From Sphaerodactylus townsendi (lineage: Eukaryota), in assembly GCF_021028975.2 (NCBI RefSeq), contig NC_059427.1:45942001-46006000 (forward strand): a DNA stretch of 64,000 nt. Direction: 5' to 3'. Both the position numbers and the translations under genes were made by a program. Positions 1 to 63,101 of this stretch are shown here, one piece after another; position 1 is the stretch's first letter; each line of letters begins with the position of its first letter. The notes beneath the pieces were generated by a model. The model did no database searches. It worked only from the letters and a program-made list of their open reading frames with translations, and was not told where the DNA came from.

Positions 1-252
1 CCTCCAGTCCTTATTGGGCAGGGAGGTTGCTTTAGTAACCCCTTTTTGGCACTCAGAAAAAAATTAGTAACCACTTCTAGAGAAGTGGTGAGAACTGGTT
101 GGATCCCACCTCTGGCTCTCCCTCATATTGAAAAATACTTAGTAGTGATAATGCATTCATCTCAAGAGCAACCATTTAGACACAGACATAAAGGGGTGTA
201 AAGCAGGGGAGTGCCAACATTTGTGTTTTTTCATGGAACCTAAATTCCCTAA

Positions 253-393
253 GGCTCATTCCGCACATGCAGAATAATGCATTTTCAAACTGCTTTCAGT
301 ACTCTTTGAAGCTGTGCGGAATAGCAAAATCCACTTGCAAACAGTTGTGAAAGTGGTTTGAAAACGCATTATTTTGCGTGTGCGGAAGGGGCC
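253..393. mobile_element. 141-bp MITE, PIF/Harbinger-like, copy 1
   Basis: TIRs GGCTCATTCCGCACATGCAG / GGCCCCTTCCGCACACGCAA; near-identical copies at 22309-22449 and 32613-32753. Confidence 0.75.
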
Positions 394-684
394 TTTGTCT
401 TGACTTTTCTAGCTAGAACCTGACAGCTGGTTTTGTTGATTTAACCACATAGACCTCACAGATCTTTCTAGTGACTTTAGAAAAAGAATGTAAGACTCTT
501 CATGTGTAGTAGAACTCATCATCCCAGAAGCATCTTAAGTGATGCAGTCTGTGCCCGGAGATACAGAGCTCTGAATCGTGCATGTTGTCCATGTTGGCTT
601 GATTAGAAGCCTCAACAGAAAGTGCCGATACATGTTGCCAGGCTCTTAATCCTCTTTGAACAGCCAACAATTTTCTTTTTTCAG

Positions 685-849
685 GTAGAAATGGGGCCAT
701 TCAAGCACACAGTGGATGATGGCCTTGATGTGAGGAAGGCTGCTTTTGAGTGCATGTATACCCTTCTGGAAAGCTGCCTTGATCGACTGGATATTTATGA
801 GTACTTGAATCATGTGGAAGATGGACTGAAAGACCATTATGATATCAGA
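685..849 (+). CDS. CAND2: CAND2 third-from-last coding exon ([25 protein letters not shown]...HYDIR)
   Basis: CAND/TIP120 C-terminal motif; tttcag acceptor and gtaagt donor; 165 nt, phase 0. Confidence 0.93.
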
Positions 850-1782
850 GTAAGTGTCTCTCTTCCTACGATCAGTACTTTCCAGAGGCGTTCCTCCCAT
901 TGGGCAAAGTGGGCAGTTGCCCTGGGCACAGCCCTGTGGGGGGCACAGGTTTGTTTGTGGGATTTTTGGTATTTTCAGTGTTTTTCCATTTTCGGCCTGC
1001 AGAGGGCGCAGTTTTTAGGCTAGCAGCACCAAAATTTCAGGGATGTTTTGGGAGACTCTCCTGATGCTACCACCCAGGTTTGGTGAGGTTTGGTTCAGGG
1101 AGTCCAAAGTTATGGACTCCCAAAGGGGGTGCCCCATCCCCCATTGTTTCCAATGGGGAATAATAATAGGAGATGAGGCTACACCTTTGAGAGTGGAAAT
1201 AACTTTGGACCCCCTAGACCAAACTTCCTGAAACCTGAGAGGTATCATGAGGGGAGTCTCCTAAACATACCCTGAAAGATTGGTGCTGCTAACTTCATAA
1301 TTGTACCACTTTGCCAGCAGGAACCTCCCAAAGTACCACAGATTTTCCTTTTTAAATCCCCCCACCTTTGGCATGGCTTTAAAGAGGAGAATCACAGGGT
1401 CCCAAGTACAAACAATGCATTGATGCTGTTTTCGGAATTGAGGAGAATCCAACTTAAAATAGCATCACTTCCAATGTTTTGGCTAGGAATTAAGATTCTC
1501 CCTTTAAAGGTGTTGGAATTAAAAGGAGAATCTGGAGCTCCCTAGACCCCAAACACCATTGAAAATGATGCTGTTTGGGGGTGGATTCCAGCATTACTTG
1601 TTTAAACTAGGGAGCTCAGATTCTCCTTTGAAACATTGAAAGTGATGCTGTTTCCCCCAATTGGGGGTACTGGATACAACACCATAAAATGTTTTCATAG
1701 CATAAAACATTTTGAAAGCATTTTGAAAATTTGGGTGCTGTGTGGTTTCCGGGCTGTATGGCCGTGTTCTAGCAGCATTCTC

Positions 1783-1825
1783 TCCTGACGTTTCGCCTGC
1801 GTCTGTGGCTGGCATCTTCAGAGGA
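1783..1825 (-). ncRNA. Minimal type I hammerhead ribozyme motif in the Penelope pLTR
   Basis: TCCT-CTGAAGA-t-GCCAGC(loop)GCAGGC-GAAA-CGTC-AGGA: intact core, stems I and II, palindromic stem III, GUC site. Confidence 0.75.
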
Positions 1826-2812
1826 TCTGATGTTGGGAAAGCAAGTGGAGTATATATCTGTTGGAGTGTCCAGGGTGGGTGGGGAAACCTTTTCTCACTT
1901 TAATATGCAACTTATCCCTGGAATCAGGCTCCATCCCTGAAGACTGGAAGATGGCCAATGTCACACCAATCTTTAAGAAAGGATCTAGGGGGGACCCAGG
2001 AAATTATAGGCCAGTCAGTTTGACATCTGTTCCTGGTAAATTAGTAGAATCTATCATTAAAGATAACATTATAAAACATGTAGAAAAGCAAGACCTGCTG
2101 AGAAAGAGTCAGCATGGCTTTTGCAGAGGCAAATCCTGTGTTACAAACTTACTAGAGTTCTTTGAGGGTGTAAACAGGCATGTGGACAGGGGTGAACCGG
2201 TGGACATTGTCTACTTGGATTTCCAAAAGGCTTTTGACAAAGTTCCTCACCAGAGACTGTTGAGAAAACTCAGCAATGAAGGAATAAGAGGGGAAGTCCT
2301 CCTATGGATTAAAAACTGGTTGAGAAACAGGAAACAAAGAGTGGGTGTAAATGGGAAGTTCTCACAATGGAGAGATGTCGGGAGTGGTGTCCCCCAAGGA
2401 TCCGTTTTGGGACCAGTGCTCTTTAACCTATTCATAAATGACCTGGAAGTAGGGGTGGGTAGCGTGGTGACCAAGTTTGCAGATGATACCAAATTATGTA
2501 GGGTGGTGAGAACCACAAAGGATTGCGAAGAGCTCCAAGCGGACCTTGATAAATTAGGTGAGTGGGCTCAGAAATGGCAAATGCAGTTCAATGTAGCAAA
2601 ATGTAAAGTGATGCACACAGGGGCAAAAAATCCAAACTTCACATACACGCTACAGGGGTCAGTTCTATCAGTCACAGACCAGGAAAGGGATTTAGGCGTC
2701 TTAGTTGATAGTTCCATGGGAATGTCAACTCAATGCATGGCAGCTGTGAAAAAGGCAAACTCTATGCTAGGGGTTCATTAGGAAAGGAATTGATAATAAA
2801 ACTGCAAAGATT

Positions 2813-3165
2813 TGAGAAGGATCCACTCAGCAGCGGTCGTGGTAACAGCAGAAGCAGTTAAGGAAAAGAAAACACAGGAACCCAGGCGTTGCTCACTTCA
2901 AAGAACAGAAGGGTTTTATTCCTTGTTTCCAAAAGCACAAAACAGTCTGACAGAGTGCAGCGCAGCAACTGGATAACCAAAGCACGCATAGACCAAACTG
3001 TTCTGTGCATACATATAGAGACATTCAACCAGGGAGCAGTGATGCAATCACACTAGATGCGCTTAGTCACGGTTGCATCACCCACTGAAACTAGGTGAAA
3101 GGTGGAGGATTGCATCAGCCAAGCTGTCAAGTAGATTTTGGTGATCTAACTGTCAAGTCCTAACA
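2813..3165 (-). repeat. Copia 3' LTR (353 bp)
   Basis: TG...CA ends; PPT GGGAAGGGG adjacent on the minus strand. Confidence 0.92.
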
Positions 3166-6100
3166 CCCCTTCCCAAAACTACTATGACAGCACCTTTATT
3201 ACTTTCAGCTGTTCTAACATTCTCTGATGCTTATTCTGTGACACAGCTTTGGTAAACACATCAGCAACATTTCGCTCTGTCTCAACATAGGCAAGTTGAA
3301 TAGTTCCATTCTGTACTAGCTCTCTAACATTCTGGTACTTTACTCCTATGTACTTAGTTCTTGTCTTCATGTTTGCAGTCTCTGCTAATGCGATGCAGGT
3401 CTGTGAATCATCAAACACGATTATAGGCTTCTTTATGGATTCACCTAACTCAGTTAGCAGTGTCTCAACCCAAAGTAGTTCTGAACACGTTTCAGACAAT
3501 GCGCAGAACTCAGCCTCAGAAGTGGACAGGCTGATTGTGGTCTGTTTTCTAGAACACCAGGTGATAGCTACATCACCATACTGAATGACAAAACCAGTAC
3601 AGGACTTCCTGTCACCACAGTCTGCAAATGAACTATCTGCAATAGGCACTTAAATCTGTGCTTTAAGTGGACTGGATCAGTAAAACCATGATCAGCAGTT
3701 CCTTTTAAGTACCTAACCACACGCTTAACACCCTCCCAATCATGTTTGCTGGGCTCGCTAGCTGTTCTGCTTAGCGTACAAACAGCAAACGCCACATCTG
3801 GGCTTGTCCAGTTAGGATATATGTAGGAGACTACCTACAACAGATTTATACAGTTCAGGATTGTTGAACTCCCCACTTTCACCACCTCTTCTGAAAGTCT
3901 AGGGACATTGGTGCTAGGCAACCCTTGCCTTTGACAATCTAGTCTTGTCCACTAACTCTTTTATTTTATTCTTCTCACTTAGGAGATAACCTTGCTTTGG
4001 TGTAGATATGACATCAATACCCAACGGCAATGCTTGATAAAACCTAAGTCCTTTAGAACATACACATGTCACTGAGTTGTTTGTACAATTTGTCAAATTG
4101 TTGTTTAGGATCTTACACACACACATATTGCTATCATCAACATAAAGAAGAATGACCTCTTGATTCTCTTTAGTTCCCCCCTTGATATATAAACATGCAT
4201 CAGCAACAGACTTCTTAAACCCCAGTTTGGCCAGTCGTACTGTTCAGTTCATTATACCAGTTAGCACCAGCTTCTGTTTTAAACCATACAAAGAACGTAT
4301 GCAAAAGATAAAACAGTATTTGGGTCTGCTTCTTCATACCCTGGTGCAGGCTTCAGATAAATTGCTTCCTTCAATTTAGCATTTAAAAAAGCACACTGGA
4401 AGTCATAATGCTTCACCATAAAGCCTTTCTTACTAGCTAATGCAAGCATAGCTCTCAAAGACTGTGGTCGTAAGCCGTGGGAGAATAGGTCTGGTCATAA
4501 TTCAGCAAACGGTCTTGTACAAACCCCTGGGCTTACAAGCCTTGCTTTTATACCTTGGAGCACCATTTGGCAACTCTTTCCTCCGGAACACCCACTTTGA
4601 CCCAATTGCCCTCTCTCCTTCTGGCAAAACAGTCTTGGTAAACACTCCGTTGTTGCACTAAGGCATTATACTCCTCAACCATAGCTTCACGCCAGAGCTC
4701 TATTTCAGCTGGCGGTAGCTTTAACATCTCTTGATAGGAGCTTGGCTCTGGATACCTGTGCTTGACAAACATAGACGCTTTGAGAAAACCCATACCTGTC
4801 AGGAGGTATCCCTTTTGTAGACCTATCAGAGATAATGGCGCACCTTAATTTGTTTCTCATCTTCTTTCACTACTGCTAGTGTCACTGTCTTGCAGCCCTT
4901 CCCCCTTCTCAGCTTTCCTGGACGCTTGGACGTTTGCCACTACTGGAAGCAGTTGGTTGACCTTGAGCTGCTGCAGGCTGCCGCCCGCAGTTCTGTTAAC
5001 CCCTTCATGCTGAGTGAAAGGTAGCAAAACCTCTGTGTTAGCATGGATAGTTTCCCATCCTGCATGCTTTTCAAAGTTTGCACTTCGAGAGATCACAACC
5101 TTTCCATAGGAATGTGCAAAACGAAAACCTTTTGTCCCAGATTCATAACCAAGAAACCCTTCAATCTCACCCACCTTCTGATCCCCCTTCCGCCTTTGGG
5201 CGTCAGGGTACCAGCACATTGGCATAACTACCAAAGATATGCAAATGATCCAGAGATGGATCTTTCTGGTACAGCAAAAAATAAGGAGTCTGGTTCACAT
5301 TAGAAGACTATACTCTGTTGGTCAAGTATGTGGCAGTGTTCACAGCCTCAGCCCAGAAATGTTCCAGGCATGTTGGCATCCAGAAGCAAACAGCCGCTTA
5401 TAGTATGTAGAACCCTAAATTTCCTCTCAGCAACCCCTGCCTCAAAAGGAGAGAAAGGGTTGGTTTTTCTCTGTGACGTATGCCTTTCTTTCTCAACCAG
5501 TTCTGGAACCCAGAACCCAGGAACTCACCTCCCTCTTGTCCGCTTTGGAGGCAAGCCACTTTTATGTGAAAACTGTCTTTCCACCATTGCCACCCACTCT
5601 TTAAACCTTGGGTAAGCCTCAGCTTTGGATTTCCAGGAAAAGACTATAGGTGAACCTGCTATAGTCATCCACCAAAACCATGTGGTACTTTCCCATGCCC
5701 CTGGCTGGGCTGAAATGGTCCAGAAAGGTCCGTATGAATTAAACCAAATGGCCTATCTGACTGTCTGGTGCTTTTCCCTTGTAGAAGGAAATGCCTTTAC
5801 TTTGGCCTTACTGCGCACAGTACAACCAAGATAATTAGGACAGGACTTGGCTTTCAGTTCACACACAACCTGGACATGTTTCCTAGCACTTTGAAACTGG
5901 TATGTCCTAGCACACGGTGCATATAATGAATACAGTCATCATGCATAGGTTTGTTAACTGCATTAGCTATGCTTTGTCCTACATCATTGTTATTTAGCTG
6001 ATAAAGGTTATTCTGCAGTATACCTGTGGCACACAGACTCTCCCTTGTTTCTTAATAGAACAGGTCTGCCCACTAAATTCCACCACATAACCCTCAGCTG

Positions 6101-7206
6101 TCAATCTAACAACGCTTAACAAACAAAATTCAAAATGAAGGCACAAAATATACATTACTCAGAGAGCTCATTTAGAGCAGGAACAAATGTTGATCCTTGA
6201 AGTTGCACCTTTGCTGCGGTGCCATCAGCTAAACAAACGCGGGTCAATAACAGGTTGGCGCACGTGGCCGCGTAAGGAGACTTTCCTTATTCACTATATG
6301 CTCAGAACAAGCAGAGTCAATGAGCCATAGTGAGTTGGAGTCCTTCTCCTTGCTTGTTACCAGGAAAGTAGATGCTTGTGATTCCTGTCTGTTAGCCCTC
6401 GCTTTCCAAGGTGGCTTGTTCTTCCTCTACCACTTTTGCATTTTGTACAGGCCCGTGCAAAATGGCCAGGATTCCCACAACGAAAACATTTTTTCACAGC
6501 ATTGCGAAGTAGGGACGGCAGAATCAGCAGGAAAATCCCTCTGCGATGATTTCTCTCAGCCGCAATCTCAAGCTGGTAGTCCCTCTGCTTCTGGTGGTCT
6601 AGCAGCTTGGCAGTGACGTGAATCCAAAGTCAGCGTAGACTCCGCGACGCTTCTGGAAACTGCATACCAACTGGTCCCAGCTGCTATCCAACCATCTAAA
6701 GCAACAGATAAACTTTGTGGGAGTCTTCAAACTGTGTAAACCTCCATCAGCCGAAGCTGTGCAAACAGTTCACGGATTCAGCTTCAGATGCTCAAACACA
6801 GATCCTCCTGGCCTCAGTTTGAGATTGTAAAGTTGTCTTGTGAGGAGGACCTTTGCCCCAGCCGACTCACGCTGATAGATGCCTTTCAAAGCCGCCCACG
6901 CCTTGGCTGCAGTCTCAGCTTCTCGCAGATAAACCAACTGTGAGCTTTCCACTGCTAGCACAACAGACGCATCGCTTTTTTCATCTGCACGCCACTCAGC
7001 AACTGTCGGGGCCGCTGGAGGCGTAGAGCTAACGTTCCACAGGTCCTCACGAACGAGATAGCTCTGCATCGGCTGGCTCCAAGCCACATAGTTATGCCTA
7101 TTCAGCCTCTCTCAAACAGCAAGCCGGACATAGTGGAAGCCATGGCAATAGCTGAGTCACATTAAGCACGCAGTACACTCACTGTTACTCACGAAAGCAC
7201 GGAGGA

Positions 7207-7220
7207 GCTGGGCCCATAAC
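7207..7220 (-). promoter_or_regulatory. Primer-binding site complementary to the tRNAi-Met anticodon arm
   Basis: Plus strand GCTGGGCCCATAAC equals an internal tRNAi-Met segment; element strand GTTATGGGCCCAGC resembles the Drosophila copia PBS. Confidence 0.85.
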
Positions 7221-7222
7221 TC

Positions 7223-7586
7223 CGAGAAGGATCCACTCAGCAGCGGTCGCGGGTAACAGCAGAAGCAGCAGCATGCAGGAAAACACAGGAACCCAGGCGT
7301 TGCTCACTTCAAAGAACAGAAGGGTTTTATTCCTTGTTTCCAAAAGCACAAAACAATCTGACAGAGTGCAGCGCAGCAACTGGATAACCAAAGCACGCGA
7401 TAGACCAAACTGTTCTGGTGCATACATATAGAGACATTCAACCAATCAAGAGCAGTGATGCAATCACACTAAGATAAGCTTAGCTCACGGTTGCATCACC
7501 CACTGAAACTATAGGTGAAGATTGGTGGAGGATTGCATCACAAGCTGTCAAGTAGATTTTGGTGATCTAACTGTCAAGTCCTAACA
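7223..7586 (-). repeat. Copia 5' LTR (364 bp)
   Basis: Direct repeat of 2813-3165, adjacent to the PBS. Confidence 0.9.
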
Positions 7587-10426
7587 AGATTGTCATGCCC
7601 TTATATAAAGCAGTGGTGCGACCGCACTTGGAGTACTGTGTCCAGTTCTGGTCGCCGCATCTCAAAAAAGGATATTGAGGAGATAGAAAAAGTGCAGAGA
7701 AGGGCAACAAAGGATGATTGAGGGACTGGAGCACCTTCCCTATGAGGAGAGGCTGCAGCGTTTGGGACTCTTTAGTTTGGAGAGGAGGCGGCTAAGGCGG
7801 GATATGATTGAAGTCTATAAAATTATGCATAGGGTAGAAAATGTTGACAGAGAGAAATTTTTCTCTCTTTCTCACAATACTAGAACCAGGGGGCATTCAT
7901 TGAAAATGGTGGGGGGAAGAATTAGGACTACTAAAAGGAAACACTTCTTCACGCAACGTGTGATTGGTGTTTGGAATATGCTGCCACAGGAGGTGGTGAT
8001 GGCCACTAACCTGGATAGCTTTAAAAAGTGGAAGCTTGGACAGATTTATGGAGGAGAAGTCGATTTATGGCTACCAATCTTGATCCTCTTTGATCTGAGA
8101 TTGCAAATGCCTTAACAGACCAGGTGATCGGGAGCAACAGCCCAGCAGAAGGCCATTGCGTTCACATCCTACATGTAATGAGCTCCCAAAGGGCACCTGG
8201 TGGGCCACTGCGAGTAGGAGAGAGCTGAAGACTAAAGATGGACTTTGAGATCTGATCCAGCTTGGCTTGCATTCTTATGTTCTTATGTTCTTATGTGTCA
8301 CCTTAGCCTTGAGTAACAAAGAAGCGGCAACCAAAGGTCCAATAGTTGAGGGCATCTTTTGAATAGATAGTACTGAAGTAACAATGAAGACTATAGCCTG
8401 GGAAGTAACCCTTGTAGATAGCAAGGTCACTGGTGGGAGCATCTGAAGTATCCTGGCCTTTGTTTCTACTAGCTTTGTCTATGGAGTCATCCTGTGTTTG
8501 TGGTAATGGAGCCCTGGTTTCCGATTACAGTCTTGACCCTAGTATTTTTTCAACACTGGCAGCCAAGAAGTTCTGTTCATTTTTCATAATTTCTTCCTTC
8601 CTAAAATTGTCCATCTCCTTATGGATTTCCAATTTAGCTTCTCTGTGTAGTCTGGACGTGAAAGTGGCTTTCAGAGTAGTCCAGAATTTCTGTTTTTTCA
8701 AATAATATTCTATGTCCAGGTTGGTTTATCATGTGTTCTGCTATTGCTGATTTTTCCTGGCTGAAATAGTCTGGCAGTGCCTTTAAAGTGGTTTAACTTT
8801 GATACGTGTCTGTGCGCTGCGTTTGGTGGTTCCTATGTAGACTTGTCCAGAGCTGCATGGTATGCGATAGACTCCTGCAGTAGCTAAAGGATCCCTCTTA
8901 TCCTTTGCTGAACGTAGCATCTGTTGAATTTTCTTAGTGGGTCTGTAGATTGTGGGATTGTTTCTTAGTGGGTCTGTAGATTGTGGGTCTGTAGTTTGTA
9001 GGTTGTGCTTCTTCATCAGTTTTCCTATGCGATCAGTGGTTCCCTTGATGTATGGTAAGAACACCTTCCCTCTAGATGGCTCTTTATCTTTGTTCATGTG
9101 GCTTGTTCTTGGTCTTGCCACAGACGCAGGCGAAACGTCAGGAGAGAATGCTGCTAGAACACGGCCATACAGCCCGGAAACCACACAGCACCCAAGTGAT
9201 TCCGGCCGTGAAAGCCTTCGACAATACATTTTGAAAATGTTTTCAAAAAATTATTTCTGCTGTGTGGCATGGCTTATTGCTGTGCTCAGATTTGTGAGTT
9301 GGGGCATGTTCTATAATGTGATGGTGACTTTGAAACAACCTGGTGTAAAAAATCATTGCTTGGTCACAGTGGGGGAGGGTGGCTGCCCATGGGGCGCGCC
9401 AAACTCCAGTTTGCCTAGATACACCACTGGTACTTTCCAATTTCATTACTTGGTAGTGGCCTTTTGGTGATGGTTTGAGTGGTGCCCTCAGCCCCCTATA
9501 GTGGTAATTTAAGATTATAAGATTCCTTCCCATGCCCCAGACATAAACGAAATGCCTGCACTGGATGACGGTTATTTGAATGCAGGATCCTCCCTAATGC
9601 TCATTACTGAAACCCTTATCTCTAGTGGTGGTAATACTTGGGATTAATGGAATTAAGTCTGAATATTACATTCTGTTTCTTATTGGGAACGCAGGCTGTC
9701 AGTAGACATCCTGAAATGATTGGTCAGCGATGGTGATTGGATAGGATCCAATTAACTGTTTGGTCTGGACAGGTCTTGTTGGCTTATCATCAGGCCAACT
9801 GGATTTATGAAGCAGGGCTGATGAGGCTGATATTAGATCTGGACTTGCAGTGGTGGGCCAGATCTCCATTATAGCACACGGGCCTCTTACCAGCTGTTTC
9901 TGGTTTGCCAGCTTCAGCCCTTCCTTAAGAGGTCAGTTAACCATGAATTGACCATACTGAGGTTGAACTACTGCAGTGTACTTTATGAGGAGCTGCCTTT
10001 GAAGTCTGAAAGCTTCAACTGGTTCAAAATGTAGTGGCAAGGCTACTTGTAGGTGTAAGATGCTGGCCGTATCTCACCAGTTTTCTTTTTCTGGCTAGTC
10101 TACATCCCTTTCTAGCCTACATGGATGATTGCTAGTCTACATCCCCTTCTAGTGCAGAGTGGAGGAAGCAGGGAGCAAGTATGCAGACTGGGATCCACTA
10201 TGAATCTTCCTGCACACTGGGGAGAGGAGAGTCTGTTTATTTGCTGTACTCTGATGTGCCAAAACCTTTCCCACAATACATCGCTCTGAAATGTGAAGCT
10301 TGAGACTGACAATTGAATGTGTTCCATGAAACTGAGTTACTGACACCTTAGAACCAGAAATCTTTGGGTGGGGTGGACTTTAGAGTACCTTTTGTGCATT
10401 GTTCTATCCTTCATCATTCTTCTTAG

Positions 10427-10534
10427 ATGCTGACTTTCATTATGCTGGCTCGTCTATCAACACTGTGTCCTAACACAGTACTGCAACGGTTAGAACAACT
10501 CATTGAGCCCCTACGAGCAACTTGCTCTACAAAG
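10427..10534 (+). CDS. CAND2: CAND2 penultimate exon ([10 protein letters not shown]...RATCSTK)
   Basis: cttag acceptor, gtaatg donor; 108 nt, in frame with flanking exons. Confidence 0.93.
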
Positions 10535-11199
10535 GTAATGCATTTGGAAAGTTCAGAAGGTTTTCTTTCCCTGGATTACTTTCTTGCATGGTTGTTGTCC
10601 CAGGCAGTCTTTAGATTGTGCTCTTGCGGGTGCAGAAACATCTACTTTAGGGTAATACAACATAGACATTTTCTTTGGAAATTGTTGGTGCAGTTCAACA
10701 CTTTGTTCTTCACTAGAGCAAGGAAGGCATTTACCATCAGCCTTGGTCCACCTGTGGCTAGCTCATATTTTAGTCCTATTTGTGGCTGTTAAGAACAATA
10801 TTATCATAAATAAAACAGAGATCACCCACAACAAAGACTCTATTATGCAAATTAAGAAACCTTGCATGTATTTTCTATTTTATTATTACTTTGGCAGTTC
10901 ATTAACATGGGCAAAAGGACATGGTATGACAAAGCTTTATCTAAAGACCGGGCCTTGATTTCCTTCATTTGCCCATTTCTAGACTGTTATTTCACATACA
11001 TTGTGGTGTTGCTTATACTTGAACCTGATTATTTTAGTGCTGCTGCTGATGGAAAGGTGATTAGTTAGTGAGTCATCCTGCCTCCCATCCCCGCAAGTCT
11101 GTGGCAGAGATGAAAGCCAGTAGGACATTAGCAGCTGGGGATGCCTTTCATGGGTATTTGGCAGAGAAATCTCCTTCTGTCAAAACACATCCTTTGAAA

Positions 11200-11860: not shown

Positions 11861-12088
11861 GTGAAAGCTGGTTCTGTGAAGCAAGAATTTGAGAAACAAG
11901 ATGAACTAAAACGTTCAGCAATGAGGGCAGTAGCGGCTTTGCTGACCATCCCTAATGTAGATAAGAGTCCTGTGATGGCTGAATTTTCTTCCCAAATCAG
12001 AGGCAACCCGGAAATGTCTTCACTCTTTGAAAGCATTCAGAAAGATTCTACTTCACTGTCTGCCACAGAATTAATGGACATAAGTTAA
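11861..12088 (+). CDS. CAND2: CAND2 last coding exon ([24 protein letters not shown]...MDIS*)
   Basis: VKAGS and FSSQIR are CAND2-like rather than CAND1-like; adjacent to RPL32; AATAAA near 12763 and 12779. Confidence 0.92.
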
Positions 12089-19482: not shown

Positions 19483-22308
19483 CGAAGGGGGAAACCGCAG
19501 AGGCTGATGGGACGCCACCCGCAGGTCCTGGCAGGTCGGTATTTTCTCGGGAGTGCAGCGGGATGGACAGCTGCTTCCGTGGGCTGAGCCTACTTAACGT
19601 CTCAAATTTAATGAGACAAAACATGAAACGCGTTACGAAAAATAGCTCGTTCAGGCTGTTATAATGATTTCCTTAAGCTGGTACCGACATGCAAGACCCT
19701 TCTACGTCAGTCATTATGCGCCGAAAGATCGACTATGAGCAAAGGTGGTGGAGCGGCCGTTTGCTGGCACAACGACATCTGGTGGCGAGGATGAGCTGTC
19801 ATGCTGAGACTGCCTTGTGGGTGGCTCTGTGTAGTTTTATTTGTGTTGCATTTGAAATTCAGTTTTATCTATTCTTAAAAATTATTTTTTCTCCTGTCGT
19901 GGCTTCCAAGAATGACATTTCAAGCGACACTGTTCCTTATCATTCATTTCTACTCTGTTTGAGCCACAAATCAGTTCGTTACATGAGAGTACTTCCAACT
20001 GTTTTTCTTGTTCACAGATCAGTTTTTATCATTGCTAAATTTCAACACACACAACCAAGGATAAATTTAAATTCCTGTTTTAAGAGTTCCTTTGAATATT
20101 GCTGTGCCAGGTGGAGCATGACCAGTTTCTTCAGGGCTCTTTTACACAAAATAGATTCACTTCTGCACAATGGGAGCTGCAAGAATGACCCAGACATGCA
20201 ATTTATGTAGAATACCATGGAGAACAAAACTGTGTTTATATGCAGAATGGTACAGTTTTAGAAGCACGAATGTAGGCAATCTATCCATTTTATGTATCAT
20301 TCATTGGAGACAGAGTAGGCACTATGCAACAGGATTTTCAATATTATAACATCTTAGAACGAGTGATCCAATTACATCTGTTTGCTATACAAATGGAAGG
20401 AAGTTTACGTGTATTAGTCTGCCTACCACCTGAGTGAGCTCAACACAACATCTTTCTGTAGGTGCACCTGGTCTCAATGTAGTGATTGCTACCATGGCAG
20501 AATAGTCTTTTTGAAGAACCTCAAAGGGCCCGTTCTTCAGTAATATTGCAGAACTTTGCAAATGGCACCTCTTTCAGTAGGCTTGTAGGATGATTTGTCC
20601 CAGATATAAATGGTTAGATAGGTCCACCGTATAAAAGCAAGCTGCTAGTTGTTGGTCTGTTATGTAGTCTTTGTGGGATACTGTCTTGGGTTTAGTTATG
20701 TTGTTAGTTATGTTGTATATGGAACCACCTTGCAGCTAGTTGAGGTGAAATATACTTTTTAAAAACCAACTATGAACAATGATTTAATTGTGAATCAAAA
20801 TAGCTGTAGTAGGCTGCAGAGGTTTGTAGAACCTGAATTTCGTAATATGGAGACTTCTAAGCACATATGGCCTTAATTAATCAAATTGACATTTTGCTGC
20901 CATTACTATGAAAACTACTACTAACCAGGTCCCCCATGGCCACCAGTGGGGGATAAGGGAGCAAAGTTGCCAGATCCAGGTTGGGAAACTCCTGGAGATT
21001 TGGGGAGGGAGTCTTGGAAGGACAGATCCACAGTGGGGTACAACGCCATGCAGTCCATCCTCCAAAGCATCCATTTTCTCCAAGGAAACAGATCTCTGGA
21101 GTCTGGAGATGAGCTGTGATGCCAGATGATCCCCAGGTCCCACATGGAGGCTAGCATCCCTAAGTACAACAAATATCCCCTAGTTTGCAAAACCCTTTTT
21201 GTTTAAAGTATAGGAGCCGAGCTTGAATTTAAGTGTTCTCTTTCTCTTGTAGACACTTTCCAAAGTCTGATGGATATTTATGCACTGGAAAATACTTCCT
21301 CGTCAGCCTACAGATAACACAAAGGGACTGCCTTGATTAAAGTCAGAAGAGACTGTGAAACGGCTGCTCTGCGTGGGCACAACAGGCCTGAATTGCTTTA
21401 TGTGGATTATTGTCCTATATACTTTGTCATTTCAGTTCTTTAACTGTCCATCAGTTCTTTAACTGAAGAATTTCTTTTGAGAAGCCTCTTTGTGTTTGAA
21501 TCAGGTAGAAGTTAAACACACACTTAAAATTCCTTGGAGATGGAGGATGCAAAACTCTCAATACCTATTTCTTTCAAATGCATAAAAAACGAGAAATTTA
21601 CAAAAATCAGTCACAAAAATGCAGCACTGGTCATACCCCTGCCTTTTTGGTCAGGAGGAAAAACCCACACCGGTCTTTTCCATATACTGTTTTGGCCAGA
21701 GTTTTTAATAACTGTGTTTAGGATGCCAATGGTTTTGAGACAGTCTTTAATCTTAATTAGCACAACACCTCGCTTATTTGGCCATCATTAAATCAAATCT
21801 TTATTATAAGGAGCAAACTAGTCTATTGTTATAATCTATGTCCTTTTACATTCCATACACAGTTAGGACTACTCAGAGTGCAGGAATGTCAATGACAACA
21901 TAATTGGGGTTTTTTTGGTACAATCTAGAAGTGGCGGAGGGAGCACAACTTGTGCCCTTCCAGACATTTAATCTTTTGAATGGAAGTTACTTGTACATAT
22001 ACAAATTTGATTTGTGGATTTCCAGACATTTTCCTTAAGACTGCTACAGATTCCATTTTGCCAACATCCTGCTACAATATCTTTTTGTTGAGAAAACGCA
22101 AATTTCTGCCTACCAAATGTGTGTATTTTATCATCAACTTATGGCAGCAAAGTTAAAAACCTCCAAAACGACCTATCGGTAACAGCCTTGCTCATGACTT
22201 GCAAACAATACTGTGGCTTTCTTTATTGAATCAATCCATCTCATGATGGGTCTTCCTTTTTTCATATTGCCTTCAACTTTTCATTGCTAATACTACTGGC
22301 CTATGAAA

Positions 22309-22449
22309 GGCCCCTTCCGCACACACAAAGTAATGTGTTTTCAAACCACTTTCACAATTGTTTGCAAGTGGATTTTGCCATTCCGCACAGCTTCAAAGAG
22401 CATTGAAAGCAGTTTGAAAGTGCATTATTCTGCATGTGCGGGATGAGCC
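22309..22449. mobile_element. 141-bp PIF/Harbinger-like MITE, copy 2
   Basis: Reverse copy of 253-393; flanks AAA/AAA. Confidence 0.75.
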
Positions 22450-32612: not shown

Positions 32613-32753
32613 GGCCCCTTCCGCACACGCAAAATAATGCATTTTCAAACCACTTTCACAACTGTTTGCAAGTGGATTTTGCCATTCCGCACAGCTTCAA
32701 AGAGCACTGAAAGCAGTTTGAAAGTGCATTATTTTGCATGTGCGGAATGAGCC
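32613..32753. mobile_element. 141-bp PIF/Harbinger-like MITE, copy 3
   Basis: 3-bp TSD ATG/ATG. Confidence 0.78.
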
Positions 32754-33991
32754 ATGCAGTTTGGTCCTTACAGTATAAAGTGATCCACCCAATGCTTTCA
32801 CCTCTGGATTCCACTGACACTTCTGCTTTCGTTATGGGAAGATTTCATGAGATGTTAAAACAATAACTTCTCATTGAAGCCAACAGGCTTAGAAGGAGGT
32901 GGCTGTTTAAGATTGTACTGTCAGGCTTTCATGCTTTTAAATTCCATGTATATGCCAATTAGTATGATTTCACAGTTTTATAAATGACATATTTTATGTT
33001 ATTAAAACAGGAAAATACGTTTCAATTTGATAGGAAAGCAAGTATTATACATATTTCAATTCCTTCCCTAAATATATACTTTTTGTGCCCTCCTCCAAGT
33101 CCTCAAATTACTCCCCCAATGGTTTCAATATTTCTGGAAATTTCACATCTCTGAAAAGTACACATTCTACTTATTCAAAACAGACGTGTCAATGTCCATG
33201 TTTTCAGGTACACAGAAATGTCACACAGGGAACAATCACACACACATTTCTTTTCCACAGAAATGTGTATCCAGTATGTTTCAGAAGCATTTCCAGAGAC
33301 TGTTACAAGTGACGGAAGAGTGAGAAAACTAGCCAGGCAGCCCAATCCAGAGGAGGGGGGACTGAATCGGCTTTTGGAGCCAGTGGGGGACTGCGCAGGC
33401 ATGTTTGCCCACTCTGCTGGCGTATGTTGCACTTACGTCAGCAGGGGAGCGCAAACTGAGAGGCGGGCTGGGGCATTCCTAAAGTCGGATCCCACTGGGC
33501 TTTGAAGCCAGAGACACCCCTGGCACAGGCCCCAGACTGTTCAGCCCTCGGGAGGGCTTTCAGGCAGCTGGGGAGTTTCTGGAGCTTGCTGCCTTCCCAC
33601 ACCACCTGGAAGCCCTCTGGAGGCGGTGTGGCGGCCCAGCAGCACCACCAGTCCCAACCATCAGAGTCCTCTGGATTAGGGTGTAAATCGCCAACAATGT
33701 AGAACTCAAAGGAGCTCCAGCACTTTTTAGCAAGTAAACTTGTTACATGATCATTTCTGATAGCAGAGTGACTTCTTCAAGAAGGAATGAAATCTTGCTT
33801 GCAATACTGAATCTAGCGTAGGAACTCATTCTTCTAGCACAGACTTCATGGTGGGCTTAGCCATGCTTACACAGTGAACCTTTCACTCTGAAAATTCACT
33901 CTGGACGAGGGAATCACTTTTGTCATAGAATCTAGCAGGGCTTGTGTAGTACAAAATTATCTGCCTGCAGGGGCCAGCAGGGGGTCTATAT

Positions 33992-34176: not shown

Positions 34177-34358
34177 NNNNNNNNNNNNNNNNNNNNNNNN
34201 NNNNNNNNNNNNNNNNNNNNNNNNNNNNNNNNNNNNNNNNNNNNNNNNNNNNNNNNNNNNNNNNNNNNNNNNNNNNNNNNNNNNNNNNNNNNNNNNNNNN
34301 NNNNNNNNNNNNNNNNNNNNNNNNNNNNNNNNNNNNNNNNNNNNNNNNNNNNNNNNNN
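34177..34358. other. Assembly gap (182 N)
   Basis: Run of n. Confidence 1.
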
Positions 34359-38519: not shown

Positions 38520-38808
38520 TGCCTCACCTACTGACCTTGCTATCTCCATTGTTACTCACATGCTACACTTCATTGTTACTCACTTGCCAGGCCACTCCTA
38601 TTCAGATGCCCTCACCTATTGACCTTTACTCACCCTTACTCACTCCACTTGCTTTCCTTTCCTACTATCAGATCCTCTGAAGATGCCAGCCACAGATGCA
38701 GGCAAAACGTCAGGAGAGAATGCTGCTAGAATACAGCCATACTGCCCAGAAACCACACAGCACCCCAGCGATTCTGGCCCTGAAAGCCTTCGAGAAGCCT
38801 TCGATACA
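38520..38808 (+). mobile_element. Penelope 3'/pLTR fragment with a mutated hammerhead (GAAA to AAAA)
   Basis: Reverse-homologous to 1731-1850 and 8340-8430. Confidence 0.8.
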
Positions 38809-52031: not shown

Positions 52032-52440
52032 CTGAAATAAGATAATAACAAAATTAAGAGGGCCATGTCTCAGTGACAGGACACATGCTTTGCAGGTGTG
52101 AGTTTACATATCCTATCATATCCTGTTAAAAGATCTCAAGACAGCAAAGGTGGGGTAGATCTAAGGTGGCAAGTGTAATGGCAGACATTTCTGACTTTAG
52201 TAGACCCACAGATTTTTTTTGCTTTTTTAATATTGGGGGGGGGGGGGGGCATCCAATGTGCATTTCTCCCTCAGCTGCCTCAGTTTAAGGCAACTTTGTG
52301 CATTTTCAAATGACTCTCCTGTAAAATAGTTCCCAAGTAGCAAATGTATGAGAATTGAGAGTTCCTACTAGTGAGAGCAGGCAACGTGCGCCTAGGGGTT
52401 TATTCCTATGAATAATAACTGAAGAAAGTAACACAATCAA

Positions 52441-52646
52441 TGTATTGTCGAAGGCTTTCATGGCCGGATTCAATTGGTCGTGGTGGGTTTTCCGGGCCGT
52501 GGTCTGGTAGATCTTGTTCCTAACGTTTCACCTGCATCTGTGTGTTTTCTCTCTGTGATACACCTCTGAAGATGCCAGCCACAGATGCAGGTGAAACGTT
52601 AGGAACAAGATCTACCAGATCACGGCCACAGTCTGGAAAACCCACC
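52441..52646. mobile_element. Short palindromic Penelope-derived element with a hammerhead (+ strand 52563-52603)
   Basis: 12-bp TSD TAACACAATCAA (52429-52440, 52647-52658); inverted arms. Confidence 0.82.
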
Positions 52647-54361: not shown

Positions 54362-55480
54362 TTTTTTTATTTATTTATTTATTTATTGTTTCGATTTATA
54401 AACCGCCCCATCCCCTGGGGGCTCTGGGCGGTGAACAACATTCACATATACAATTAATTAAATCGATAACAACAATATAATACTAAAAACCATTAAAAAC
54501 TACTTAAAAACAGCGGTTAGCATCATAATAGGTGCCCTATTATGGCCAATTCAATTTAGATCACCCCAGTAAAAGAAAAGGGAGGGGTCAGGTTCCTCTC
54601 TGGGAGGATAATAGGTGGTAAAGTGCAACAGATGGTATGTGCAAGAAGATGCAGGGGGGGAAGGAGAGGGGGAGGGGAAGGCGGCGCCACTCAGCCACTG
54701 GACACTCCAAAGCGCCCGTGGAACAACTCGGTCTTACAGGCTCCCAAGGAACTCATCAAGGTCCCGCAGGGCCCGGGCAGCTGGAGGAAGAGTGTTCCAC
54801 CAGGCTGGGGCCAGGGCTGTAAAGGTCCTGGCCCGTGTGGAGGCCAGCCGCATCATCGAGGGGCCAGGAACCGCCAGCAATTGGCCTCTGCTGATCGCAG
54901 AGGCCGAGTAGGGGCATATGGGGTAATGCGGTCTCTCAGATAATGCAGGGTCCCAGGCCGCGTAAGGCCTTAAAGGTTAAAACCCACACCTTGAAGATGA
55001 TTCGAATTCCACTGGAAGCCAGTGCAGCTGGCGCAGCACAGGTTGAATATGATCACAGAAGGCTTCCCCTGTGAGCAAACGCTGCCGCTGCATGTTGGAC
55101 CAGTTTCAGTTTCTGGAATCAGGCGCTAGCGGGAAGGCTCCGCCAGAGAGCGAGTTACAATAGTCAAGCCTGGAGGTGACCGTTGCATGTATCACAGTGG
55201 CCAGGTCTGCCTGAGAGAGGAAGGGGGCCAGCCGCCGGGCCTGCCGAAGATGGAAAAATGCAGTCCGGGTTACAAGGGCCACCTGGGTCTCCATAGAAAG
55301 AGACGAATCCAGGTGGACCCCCAGACTGCGGACAGAGGGGGCCGGCGCCAAAATGGTCCCCTCCCACTCCGGCGGCTGGAAATCCCCTGCCTCCCCCCTG
55401 CGGCCCAGCCAAAGGATCTCCGTCTTCGATGGATTCAGTTTCAGCCTGCTCTGCTGTAACCAACCAGCGACCGCCTCCAA
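54362..55480 (-). mobile_element. L2-clade LINE 3' fragment
   Basis: RLKLNPSKTE...SLGVHLD...SRLDYCNSL; (TAAA)n tail. Confidence 0.85.
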
Positions 55481-57251
55481 ACAATTTTAATGTTATTTTC
55501 ATTGCAAAATTACAGAGGAAAGGTGCCAATTAAAAAAAATGAAAATGGCAATAGATGGTCATGATGCTATAGGGATTTAGCAGTGGGTGGAAACAAGGAA
55601 TATATCACTAATGGGACAGAACCTGCAAAACATGCACTTTCCCATTCAAAGGGTATCCAGAGTTATTTTGCTGTCTTTCGTGAAGATAATTCCATGGAAG
55701 ACACAGTAAAGCGATGGAAACACCAAACAGGATGCATCGAGGATGACACTGCATGAATACTTTTGAAAACTGCACTGCTTTCAAGGAAGACAACATGGAT
55801 CAAAACATCATGTCAAAAAACCTTGCTCTCTGTGGGCAACTGCTTAACTGTCACAACATTTGTTGCCATAGACATACTAACGGGGAGATCTACTTGTAAA
55901 CTGCTGTGGGCAGAGGTGTGCACATATGGCTCACTCTGCACAGTCAAGATCCCTACTTTCTGAGATTTCTCCATCACACAGAGAGAGCCCTGTGAAAAAA
56001 CTGTCTGAGTCGTTTAAAAGATAAAACATCTTTGTATACAAAAGATCCCAGGTTCAATAACTGACTTTTTGAATTAAAAGACTGAGGCAGTAGCTGATGT
56101 TACTCTGCACAGCTTGAAACTGTGGAGAGTCGCTGCCTGTCAGAATAGACCTTACTAATCTTGGTTTGACTTAGAAGGTTAGATGAATGTACATAGCTTG
56201 GAGACTGAACTTTCTCCCATTATTCCCCCTCATCTCTGTTCACTGCATGCATTTTCAAATATCAGAAATGAACCTTCTTCCAAGCAATGTAGGAAGGCAG
56301 TCCAATTATGATTATTACTGATATGCCCTTCAATGACACCCACAGTTGATGTGGCTTTACTGGAAAGCAAATATACAATTGTAGAATTACAGTCCAGATG
56401 CCTTTTCAATTGACTTCATTGGTAGGTGACTGAATCCAAATTTTATCAAAGCATCAGTTTCTGTTCACATAATAGATGGTTTAATTGTGTTCATCACTAA
56501 AGCTGGAAAAAAACAGACTGATTGTCCAATAGTCTACATGCTGTCACCTAAATATTTTGATATTTCCCCTCTTCTATGCTGGGCTAGTAGCTAAACCTTT
56601 GGTGTGAGTTCTTTTAAAAAATAAACAAACCAAGAATTTGTCCCTCTAAGCCTGTATAAGGTAATACATTTTGACTATTTTTAATTTAAGATAAAATAGT
56701 ATGTTTGAACTATCTTTTTTTGTAGAGCAGGGAACACTGGGACACGTATGTAAAATTATTGATTGTGTTCAGCATGGAGGAACAGACCCAGTTCTAGCAC
56801 TATAAGCCTGACATATTGTGGACCCTTTTCTGATTTTTGTCTGGTCCTTCACGTTTGCATATACTTGCACCCAACCCAGCTAAAAACAGTAACTAACTAT
56901 GCAATCCTAATGAAACTTTTGTTTGAGCAAGTAGGATTCTGATTGGACCTTTAGATTTGCTCTCTGAAATATCATTAAGCATCCATGCTTTGATTAAGGT
57001 ATCCATACATTTCATAGCCTTGTTCTGACATGCCAAATAAAACATGTTGTGAACACCGTGGTATAGTGGAACTGTGCAAATGCCTAACTCTAGTATATAA
57101 ATGTAATTTCTGAACATAAATGCACAAGTGAAATTCTTCTTTAAAACTTCCTGTAGAGTATTGTCCTATACTCGAAATATGGAAATATCATGTGGAAAAA
57201 ATGTTGCTGATAGAGTCTTTCACATTTAAAAATCTTCCTTCATTTTAACAG

Positions 57252-58645: not shown

Positions 58646-58701
58646 TGAGTGATTGCCTCATATTTGACCCATCTTTGTCCCATAGCAACTTTATGGTGAT
58701 A

Positions 58702-58787
58702 TTTGGGTGCTGTGTGGTTTCTGGGCTGTATGGCCGTGTTCTAGCAGCATTCTCTCCTGACGTTTCGCCTGCGTCTGTGGCTGGCAT
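58702..58787 (-). mobile_element. 86-bp Penelope pLTR fragment
   Basis: Direct repeat CTTTATGGTGATA (58689-58701, 58788-58800); near-identical to 1731-1817. Confidence 0.85.
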
Positions 58788-59024
58788 CTTTATGGTGATA
58801 AGTAAGTTGTTGATGTCCAACAGCAATGTTTAACAATAAATAGTAGGAATGTATACAAACAATATCAAATACCCAAACCTGTAGACTTCACTTTGATTTG
58901 CACACAATTCCTGATGATGCATCTGGCGAGGATGTTATTGAAGCAATGTCTGAAGTTCTTTGTTGATTCAGTCTGCCACTTTGCTGAATGTTTTGTTTCA
59001 GTTTTGTCTGTTGATCTCTTATAG

Positions 59025-62703: not shown

Positions 62704-62938
62704 CTGGTAGTGGTGGTCTGGTGGCTCTTGTTCCTAACGTTTTGCCTGCATCTGTGGCTGGCATCTTCAGAGGTGTATCACAGAGGTGTGTAACAGACTT
62801 CCCTCTGTGATACACCTCTGAAGATGCCAGCCACAGATGCAAGCGAAACGTTAGGAACAAGATCCACCAGACCATGGCCACACAGCCCGGAAAAACCACC
62901 ACAACCAGTTGAATCTGGCCGTGAAAGCCTTCGGCAAT
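62704..62938. mobile_element. Short palindromic Penelope-derived element with two opposed hammerhead motifs
   Basis: Direct repeat ACATTCTGATCAG (62691-62703, 62939-62951); arms about 62714-62785 and 62803-62874. Confidence 0.85.
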
Positions 62939-63101
62939 ACATTCTGATCAGTTTGCGATCACATATGCTCATCTGATAAACAGTATAAAGAGTTCTCCCC
63001 TCACCCTTCCCTGGAGTCTTTTATTACATTGAATCTCAATAGGCCCCTGCAGTCTCTGTCAGGGTGAGGAGATGTTTATTTTTTTTCAGCCTGTTGTATG
63101 A

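Follow-up and report, generated by a model that had tools for sequence, protein, structure and literature searches.

A four-layer nest of transposable elements in one intron of a Sphaerodactylus townsendi CAND2-type gene

A single intron of a CAND2-type gene contains four transposable elements (TEs) stacked one within another: a hAT-like element holds a 5'-truncated Penelope/Poseidon element, which holds a 5'-truncated CR1-type LINE, which in turn holds a copia element. The original prediction, made from the 64,000-nt stretch of contig NC_059427.1 that we refer to as the window, proposed this nest; the classes of its layers, their boundaries, the host gene and the nesting order of the element copies are all supported. 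The four TEs quite probably record four ordinary, fairly recent and successive insertions, with the nesting arising mostly from each newcomer enlarging a neutral target. As such, the nest is a tidy instance of an already known phenomenon; a literature search, outside which most subscription papers fell, found no paper on exactly this locus.

The host intron and the limits of the layers

The exons flanking the intron and the parts of the nest, in order along the window, are as follows.

685..849, plus strand: CAND2 exon, third from last coding exon; donor GT at 850; PF08623 (TIP120) positions 27-81
875..882, no strand: left 8-bp TSD copy of the outer element, GTACTTTC; unique contigs of X1 (600-908) and X3 (601-911) span the border
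883..1730, no strand: hAT-like element, left part; starts CAGAG and ends with the Penelope target (1719-1730); very high repeat depth
1731..1889, minus strand: Penelope/Poseidon 3' end; pLTR with hammerhead-type core CTGAAGA (from 1821) and first 85 nt of the ORF
1890..2812, plus strand: 5'-truncated CR1-type LINE, RT part; stop-free frame of 296 codons; RVT_1 E=6.7e-34; boundary +/- 1-3 nt
2813..3165, minus strand: copia 3' LTR; TG...CA; a polypurine tract (~3166-3174) lies ahead of it on the minus strand
3166..7222, minus strand: copia interior; PBS-like site, gag, zinc knuckle, protease region, GAG-pre-integrase, SH3-like, RT, RNase H-like end
7223..7586, minus strand: copia 5' LTR; 10 substitutions per 348 aligned bases and 12 gap events relative to its twin
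7587..8296, plus strand: CR1 3' part, from the right copia TSD (7587-7591); ORF2 end, 3' UTR, octamer tail
8297..9116, minus strand: Penelope body; end of the RT region, GIY-YIG endonuclease region (~632-814 of P0121), then upstream pLTR
9117..9238, plus strand: inverted pLTR copy; ORF nt 7 to 116-120, 31-35-nt tail, no hammerhead core; right copy of the 12-mer at 9227-9238
9239..9437, no strand: hAT-like element, right part and right TSD; ends CACTG at 9429, GTACTTTC at 9430-9437
10427..10534, plus strand: next CAND2 exon; acceptor AG at 10425-10426; PF08623 positions 82-117, which follow on directly from those of the exon before

The intron (850-10426) measures 9,577 bp, and 1,022 bp once the nest is subtracted, in agreement with the predicted growth from ~1 kb to 9.6 kb; 25 intron bases precede the first TSD, likewise as predicted. 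The protein encoded by exon 685..849 shares 98-100% identity with bird and squamate proteins, many of them labelled CAND2 or CAND1-like, and in a PDB comparison it slightly favoured human CAND1 (109.6 bits) over human CAND2 (104.2 bits). RPL32 and MBD4 lie downstream of this CAND2-type gene, surroundings that we take to be the CAND2 neighbourhood. Judged by exon sequence and neighbourhood, the host gene is the sauropsid CAND2, not CAND1. Its downstream exon had a depth of 0.1 in RNA run X23 (another organism, ~6% of the run), and an Rfam scan of positions 1-11,000 gave one chance MIR319 match and nothing else.

The three TSDs proposed for the nest are all exact, and each abuts an element terminus. 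At a single specified pair of positions in the window, an 8-mer would match exactly by chance with a probability of 2.8e-5, a 12-mer with 9.4e-7 and a 5-mer with 1.3e-3.

Composition of the four layers

The outer element is 1,039 bp long, non-autonomous and hAT-like. Its 8-bp TSD and hAT assignment stood, with the qualifications that 1.04 kb is long for a MITE, as the element had been labelled, and that the TIRs agree at only 9 of their first 13 positions. The direct match at the element's ends reaches 10 nt because the target continues CA; a 10-bp TSD was nevertheless rejected, as the ends would then be asymmetric and only the 8-bp reading gives the symmetric CAG...CTG. The left part contains internal palindromes (1009-1113/1199-1303 and 1457-1479/1631-1653), and none of its six translated frames had a Pfam match. 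The termini, CAGAG and CAGTG, both fit the YARNG motif of PMC3014272. In the accessible part of that paper, the composite hobo/hAT families of Anolis carolinensis are likewise lizard non-autonomous hATs with 8-bp TSDs, YARNG ends and Penelope and CR1 inside. The TIRs found here (CAGAGGCGTTCC / CAGTGGTGTATC) had no exact counterpart in its Table 1, the nearest being the start CAGAGSCGG of hAT-N6 to N8, and, unlike the families described there, the present composite gave no sign of having itself been amplified.

The Penelope layer is delimited by a 12-bp duplication, CATTTTGAAAAT, at 1719-1730 and 9227-9238, and carries an inverted pLTR plus tail. Because the first 4 nt of the 12-mer double as the end of the element's own tail, the TSD is 8-12 bp long, compared to 8-10 bp in Adineta (PMC3846280) and 11-13 bp in a second Penelope copy. 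A protein search returned 20 matches, one of them annotated GIY-YIG; the best was A. carolinensis P0121 (78% identity), which carries PF00078. When P0121 was aligned to the Penelope body by tblastn, residues 632-814 matched (E=1.9e-52), and the Pfam GIY-YIG model had no direct match on the window's broken Penelope frames. The body also carries a local 31-bp tandem duplication (8930-8991), and the 3' end (1731..1889) matches the N-terminus of P0121 and differs from a second Penelope copy at 58703-58790 by 1 mismatch in 88 nt. P0121, an 836-aa Anolis protein named "uncharacterized" at its source, may be the Poseidon_Ac product.

The inverted pLTR pair is complementary to 1731-1809 at 79 of 79 nt, and the element's ends sit at ORF nt 85 and 116-120, consistent with what is described for Anolis Poseidon, an internal RT start at 111-118 nt and a tail of 30-40 nt (PMC11167929). 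Inverted pLTRs with a 30-40-nt tail at one end are given as a PLE hallmark in the accessible text of PMC8557442. The layer resembles Poseidon_Ac / PAc of Anolis (PMC11167929) and the Adineta Penelope insertions (PMC3846280) in its C-terminal GIY-YIG-type ORF end, the hammerhead core at the ORF start, the inverted 5'-truncated pLTR, the tail at one end and the short TSD. The hammerhead core (CTGAAGA...GAAAC, minus strand) had no Rfam match and folded no better than its shuffles (z=0.37). A ribozyme acting on CAND2 pre-mRNA was rejected, as the core lies on the strand opposite to that of the gene and the inverted copy on the sense strand lacks it.

The CR1 layer ends, as predicted, in a microsatellite tail, (TTCTTATG)x3 at 8272-8295 (x3.1 if counted to 8296), and its ORF2 C-terminus is presumably that of a CR1. 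No clear TSD flanks the element: the best direct repeat spans 5 nt and lies 4 nt off the tail end; ACCTT is a candidate. Octamer 3' microsatellites are described for CR1 in the available portions of PMC8665684 and PMC4316615, and the amniote CR1 LINEs treated there share with this copy the 5' truncation, the RT and 3' UTR and the octamer tail, the TTCTTATG unit being close to the avian unit ATTCTRTG. The likeness does not extend to the 3' hairpin, which is not intact in the window's copy (not stable, z=+1.98), and reads part from the window at 8227. We called the CR1-in-Penelope junction by collinearity with a second Penelope copy: the one at 38.5 kb is collinear with both flanks of CR1, but 59 nt shorter across the interval. 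The corresponding joint (~1889->8297) was absent among the 15 read joints listed of 1,713, and two exact Penelope motifs flanking CR1 were each found at 0 loci in metagenome contigs.

The copia element is 4,774 bp long and has the 5-bp TSD AGATT at 2808-2812 and 7587-7591. At its outer ends the element is canonical; at its inner end, the 5' LTR differs from its twin. As assembled, the interior is split into many frames. It matched PF13961, PF14223, PF00098, PF25597 and PF07727, and also PF13976 (E=4.4e-4), PF22936 (E=0.012) and an RVT_2 divided over two frames, and the domains run in the copia order: gag (7111-6770), zinc knuckle, Pol_BBD (weak), GAG-pre-integrase, SH3-like and RVT_2. No match to the integrase core (rve) was found in the broken frames. 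The terminal region is presumably RNase H, a label taken from motifs, with no Pfam match, and among 295 candidates no protein matched it at E<=1e-40. The PBS-like site we take to be of the half-tRNA-Met type; Drosophila copia uses a half-tRNA. With Ty1/copia elements of the Drosophila copia type, the layer shares TG...CA LTRs, a 5-bp TSD, a polypurine tract, the copia gag and RVT_2, and also the placement of the integrase region ahead of RT.

Order and history of the insertions

Removing copia and one TSD copy (4,779 bp) had been predicted to restore contiguous CR1, and the outcome was an exact read joint, 2806->7586, present in reads of other CR1 copies (contigs of all three contig runs and 626 raw X23 reads). 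Other copies of the hAT-like element showed the uninterrupted joint 1730->9251, in contigs of X1 and X3 and in 2 reads of X23. At the locus itself, one independent individual carried both outer junctions at full single-copy depth, and a second carried the left junction; an X3 contig (9401-10600) spans the right one. Unique contigs end 26-29 nt inside the hAT termini, so that in the read graph the repeat borders fall at the TSDs. No listed contig bridges any inner junction of the present copy.

Going by what is known of how each class moves, the non-autonomous hAT would have been pasted in by a trans-acting transposase, with the 8-bp TSD left behind. A Poseidon-clade Penelope would next have been reverse-transcribed into an AT-rich near-palindrome within it and, as is usual for such elements, have ended up truncated, with an inverted pLTR and a tail. 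CR1 would have followed by target-primed reverse transcription, with the Penelope pLTR as its target, and finally a copia cDNA would have been integrated into the CR1 RT with its 5-bp TSD. All four events presumably took place at the present locus, and the nest is probably neutral for CAND2. No orthologous empty site was seen.

One comparison runs opposite to what this order predicts: the LTRs of the innermost element differ by 10 substitutions and 12 gap events over 348 nt, more than the arms of the Penelope further out, which show no difference over 79 nt (Fisher p=0.22 on substitutions, p=0.02 including gap events). We tentatively attribute this reversal to assembly error. Dating by the LTRs was rejected: gap events (12) outnumber substitutions (10), 10 of the 12 are extra bases in the 5' LTR copy, and such dating is unsafe because the repeat interior appears error-rich, its gap pattern resembling long-read error.

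We think it unlikely that the Penelope layer captures, in vivo, an integration that proceeded from both ends, and that the site in this abundant hAT family repeatedly receives Penelope insertions and so gives rise to deep nests. On this reading, a Poseidon dimer would make a staggered cut of ~12 nt in the AT-rich near-palindrome and both strands would be primed, one from each internal RT start site (ORF nt 85 and ~116-120), so that a single step would account for the pLTR inversion, the tail at one side only and a TSD of 11-13 bp. Were this geometry general, the nest would gain weight, because the steps of PLE integration after first-strand priming are still unvalidated (PMC11167929).

The order of insertion had been called unambiguous, which holds for the element copies but is too strong for the locus, since lizard hATs can arrive pre-loaded (available text of PMC3014272) and none of the listed read joints confirms the CR1/Penelope junction. 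The hAT might thus have entered CAND2 already loaded with Penelope, and perhaps CR1, in which case fewer than four events occurred here and the order of the copies would stand while the history of the locus would differ. Both hAT ends and the exact 8-bp TSD are intact, and non-autonomous hobo/hAT families of Anolis, as far as PMC3014272 is accessible, amplified with Penelope, CR1 and other fragments aboard, some spreading with a 520-bp Penelope insert or CR1 cargo. We nonetheless judge this history improbable: the 15 joints listed of 1,713 include uninterrupted (1730->9251) and internally deleted (1615->9281) hATs and no composite, and the imperfect TIRs (9/13) give no hint of recent remobilisation.

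Insertion preference, assembly quality and wider comparison

The nest had also been suggested to mark an insertion hotspot or a tolerated site. Tolerance is plausible yet trivial, given outer junctions at full single-copy depth (both in one individual, the left in a second), and the hotspot is unsupported, as a uniform-insertion model already gives such nests and a single locus cannot show targeting. A true local preference, by which the AT-rich near-palindrome of the hAT or young-TE chromatin draws in insertions, is decidedly improbable: it would concern one locus only, strict nesting has a chance of ~6% without any preference, and the four TE enzymes follow unrelated target rules. The Penelope target is indeed an AT-rich near-palindrome, four young insertions share an original intron of ~1 kb, and Anolis Poseidon favours AT-rich DNA with ATT in vitro (PMC11167929). 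Human target TEs have position-specific hotspots in the accessible part of PMC2836564, but 35,846 of 36,478 insertion types there occur at about chance frequency. Under the uniform model, the probability of strict nesting given four hits in the intron is 0.059. Elements at depth of at least 4 number ~3, 87, 475 and 1,850 per Gb at 10, 20, 30 and 40% TE, values that overstate the frequency of young four-class nests because the simulation leaves out deletion and selection and takes in nests whatever their age and class. For squamates, a TE content of 23.7-56.3% is given (PMC6050309).

Inside the repeats, the assembly looks error-rich: 21 of the 35 listed copia difference sites leave no X1 contig depth for the window's letter, and the window's extra CR1 and Penelope bases are missing from most reads. 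The unique flanks match X1 without a difference over 309 and 1,155 nt; none of the listed records spans the nest. That the assembler joined repeat copies from separate loci in at least one inner layer is nevertheless very improbable, as a mis-join would neither yield exact TSD pairs 4.8, 7.5 and 8.6 kb apart nor restart each host element at the correct base, short-read contigs hold both outer junctions, and copia sites 3883, 3885, 4664 and 5826 keep a roughly single-copy remainder in X1 and X3, which is suggestive only but expected of a real locus-specific copy.

Transposition-in-transposition (TinT) analyses reportedly rank families from many thousands of nests. Read as four successive insertions, the present nest resembles the human nested TEs of PMC2836564, in its accessible text, in that the interrupting element is younger than the interrupted one and in having a TSD per event; the surveys described there draw their family ranking from many thousands of nests, in contrast to the one locus here. 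Compared to surveyed nests it is unusual only for its four stacked classes and three clean TSDs. It can serve as a clean example for teaching and as a single data point on the activity order hAT, Penelope, CR1, copia in this lineage, and it shows four TE classes active in a short time and a 1-kb intron that can expand ninefold. Should a genome-wide count show true targeting of the hAT position, the nest would matter more. Organism B has the same unique intron sequence, and the nest may therefore supply presence/absence markers among close relatives.

Structure of the nest and its host gene

The nest lies between two exons that match consecutive stretches of Pfam TIP120. Although human structures gave the host exon a slightly higher score for CAND1 than for CAND2 (109.6 versus 104.2 bits), we assigned the gene to CAND2, because within its 98 to 100% identity to bird and lizard proteins the 100% matches were sauropsid proteins named CAND2 or CAND1-like, and because RPL32 and MBD4 lie downstream, a neighbourhood that we take to be that of CAND2. 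Judging by the proteins that the exon and the Penelope fragment match, the window is vertebrate and most probably squamate DNA. Removing the nest shortens the intron from 9,577 to 1,022 bp, in keeping with the original prediction of an expansion from about 1 kb to 9.6 kb. Features of the region are as follows.

685-849, CAND2 exon (TIP120 positions 27-81)
850-10426, CAND2 intron, with the nest at 875-9437
10427-10534, CAND2 exon (TIP120 positions 82-117)
~11861-12085, last CAND2 coding exon
~16.5-17.0 kb, minus strand, RPL32
near 22.7-23.1 and 37.8-38.5 kb, minus strand, exons of a putative EFCAB12
34177-34358, assembly gap of 182 N
~43.9-49.6 kb, minus strand, MBD4
55109-55486, RT end, presumably L2-like

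The observation of a four-class nest was confirmed. All three target duplications quoted for it are exact and sit at element ends, where the chance of a match at a given position pair is 2.8e-5 for 8 nt, 9.4e-7 for 12 nt, and 1.3e-3 for 5 nt. The layers measure approximately 1,039 (hAT), 1,088 (Penelope), 1,629 (CR1), and 4,774 bp (copia), with the CR1/Penelope borders uncertain by 1 to 3 nt. The outer hAT-like element starts with CAGAG and ends with CACTG, both fitting the YARNG motif, and has an 8-bp duplication, as described for lizard hATs (PMC3014272). Its terminal inverted repeats agree at only 9 of 13 positions, and its left part matched no protein family in six frames.

The Penelope body, on the minus strand, corresponds to residues ~632-814 of P0121, an 836-aa Anolis carolinensis protein (Penelope fragment 78% identical), and both element ends match the P0121 N terminus. 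The left end stops 85 nt past the ORF start. At the right end lies an inverted copy of ORF nt 7 to 116-120, which is complementary to the left end at 79 of 79 bases. The element has the architecture described for PLEs, with a truncated, inverted pLTR and a 30- to 40-nt tail at one end (PMC8557442). For Anolis Poseidon, reverse transcription is reported to start internally, 111 to 118 nt into the ORF, at two sites that enclose the tail; in vitro, cutting and extension affect both DNA strands (PMC11167929). Because the tail's last bases double as the opening four bases of the 12-mer duplication (1719-1730, 9227-9238), the duplication is 8 to 12 bp long; Adineta Penelope duplications measure 8 to 10 bp (PMC3846280). 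A second copy, an 88-bp 3' fragment at 58703-58790 (site 58689-58800), has the same end base, shows one mismatch in 88 positions, and is flanked by an 11- to 13-bp duplication. Relative to CAND2, the hammerhead core lies on the antisense strand, the sense-strand inverted piece is without it, and neither Rfam nor folding gave independent support for a ribozyme. Two short palindromic inserts derived from another Penelope subfamily, with head-to-head pLTR pieces around the hammerhead core, occur at 52439-52646 and 62713-62947. Within the nest's Penelope ORF, a 31-bp tandem duplication (8930-8991) may be specific to this copy, as reads from the other copies start only at 8968-8971 and it is spanned by one X3 contig of low depth.

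The CR1 layer contains RVT_1 (E=6.7e-34) in a 296-codon stop-free frame and ends in an octamer tail like that of amniote CR1 (PMC8665684, PMC4316615). Between its two LTRs the copia element carries a polypurine tract and a PBS-like site, along with gag of the copia type, zinc knuckle, GAG-pre-integrase, SH3-like, and RVT_2 domains in copia order.

Junctions in sequencing runs and the order of insertion

We compared the window with 4 of 24 listed public sequencing runs: contigs of X1 (which may be the sample behind the assembly), X3 (another sample, different at a few flank positions), and X4, and raw reads of X23, from another organism. Unique contigs cross the left junction in X1 (600-908, 0 differences, depth 84.6) and X3 (601-911, depth 35.4), reaching 26 to 29 nt into the hAT-like element. 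The right junction is crossed by an X3 contig (9401-10600, depth 36.8); that of X1 begins at 9446 (depth 83.4), thus outside it. Junction-contig depth equals unique-flank depth in both runs, which gives no sign of an empty allele in X1 or X3.

Sequence skipping from 2806 to 7586 (4,779 bp, copia plus one duplication) appeared in 22 X1, 11 X3, and 7 X4 contigs and in 626 X23 reads, so the CR1 sequence predicted to be restored by removing copia is real family sequence. The CR1 family looks abundant and homogeneous; a 339-nt X3 contig reaches depth 3,240 versus ~36 for unique DNA, although contig depth is no copy number. A joint from 1730 to 9251, with 14 letters between that open like 9239-9246, occurred in 2 X1 contigs, 3 X3 contigs, and 2 X23 reads, which shows that other hAT-family copies are uninterrupted at the Penelope site, with a single 12-mer.

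The CR1/Penelope junction is the weakest of the nest. No clear CR1 target duplication was found (best direct match 5 nt, offset by 4 nt), no joint across CR1 is among the 15 listed of 1,713, and two exact flanking motifs gave 0 loci in metagenome contigs. Support comes from an older, tailed copy of the Penelope pLTR at 38,532-38,796, which aligns in order to 8429-8333 and then 1851-1733, although its 14 nt stand against 73 in the nest, making it 59 nt shorter across the CR1 site. This site would therefore also be intact in other copies. Since copia and Penelope each interrupt a site shown to be intact elsewhere, and CR1 presumably does too, the order of the element copies is hAT, Penelope, CR1, copia. 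The original prediction of an unambiguous order thus stands for the copies but not strictly for the locus: Anolis nonautonomous hATs are described as having amplified with Penelope and CR1 cargo (PMC3014272), making it less certain that all four insertions occurred at CAND2.

Divergence of the copia LTRs

Between the two copia LTRs there are 10 substitutions over 348 nt plus 12 gap events, of which 10 are extra bases in the same LTR. The older Penelope arms show fewer differences, 0 in 79 (Fisher p=0.22 on substitutions alone, 0.02 once gaps are included). At face value, this contradicts the insertion order. Of 40 difference rows listed (of 577), 35 fall in copia; at 21 of these 35 sites the X1 depth leaves nothing for the window letter, and at 4 the remainder is near single-copy depth in X1 and X3 alike. 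Among the listed differences, extra window bases in CR1 and Penelope are missing from many or most reads (for example, 2,725 of 3,034 at 8029; 16 of 16 at 8545), and the unique flanks of the nest agree fully with X1. The pattern is most simply read as long-read error left uncorrected within the repeat. Alternatively, X1 may be without the nest's copia copy and the differing letters be real private changes. Whether error or private change, the differences make the LTR pair unsuitable for dating.

Chance nesting and neighbouring repeats

The interpretation originally placed on the nest is partly supported. Its suggestion of a hotspot is not supported, as a null model of uniform insertion suffices and a single locus cannot outweigh it. 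Given four successive hits in the intron, this model gives strict nesting a probability of 0.059; it predicts ~3, 87, 475, and 1,850 elements per Gb at depth four or more for 10, 20, 30, and 40% TE, figures generous for a young four-class nest because deletion, selection, and age are left out. Squamate genomes are reported to contain 23.7 to 56.3% detectable TEs (PMC6050309), and most human nesting types to lie near chance expectation, with a minority over-represented (PMC2836564). There is no evidence for targeting of the site or for an effect on CAND2, and the nest, well preserved and built of four classes, adds a new case to a known phenomenon.

The 1 kb of intron outside the nest contains, at 9909-10019, a weak older LINE remnant that resembles the RT segment at 55109-55486 (tblastn E=0.002) and would be a fifth TE of the intron. 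A 145-bp palindromic MITE-like element has three copies, 94 to 96% identical (251-395, 22306-22449, and 32613-32754), the first of which lies a short way upstream of the nest, in intron sequence. Contigs of X4, a run labelled as another organism, match the unique intron and exon sequence within 9861-10455 without a difference over 335 and 226 nt, which marks it as a very close relative.
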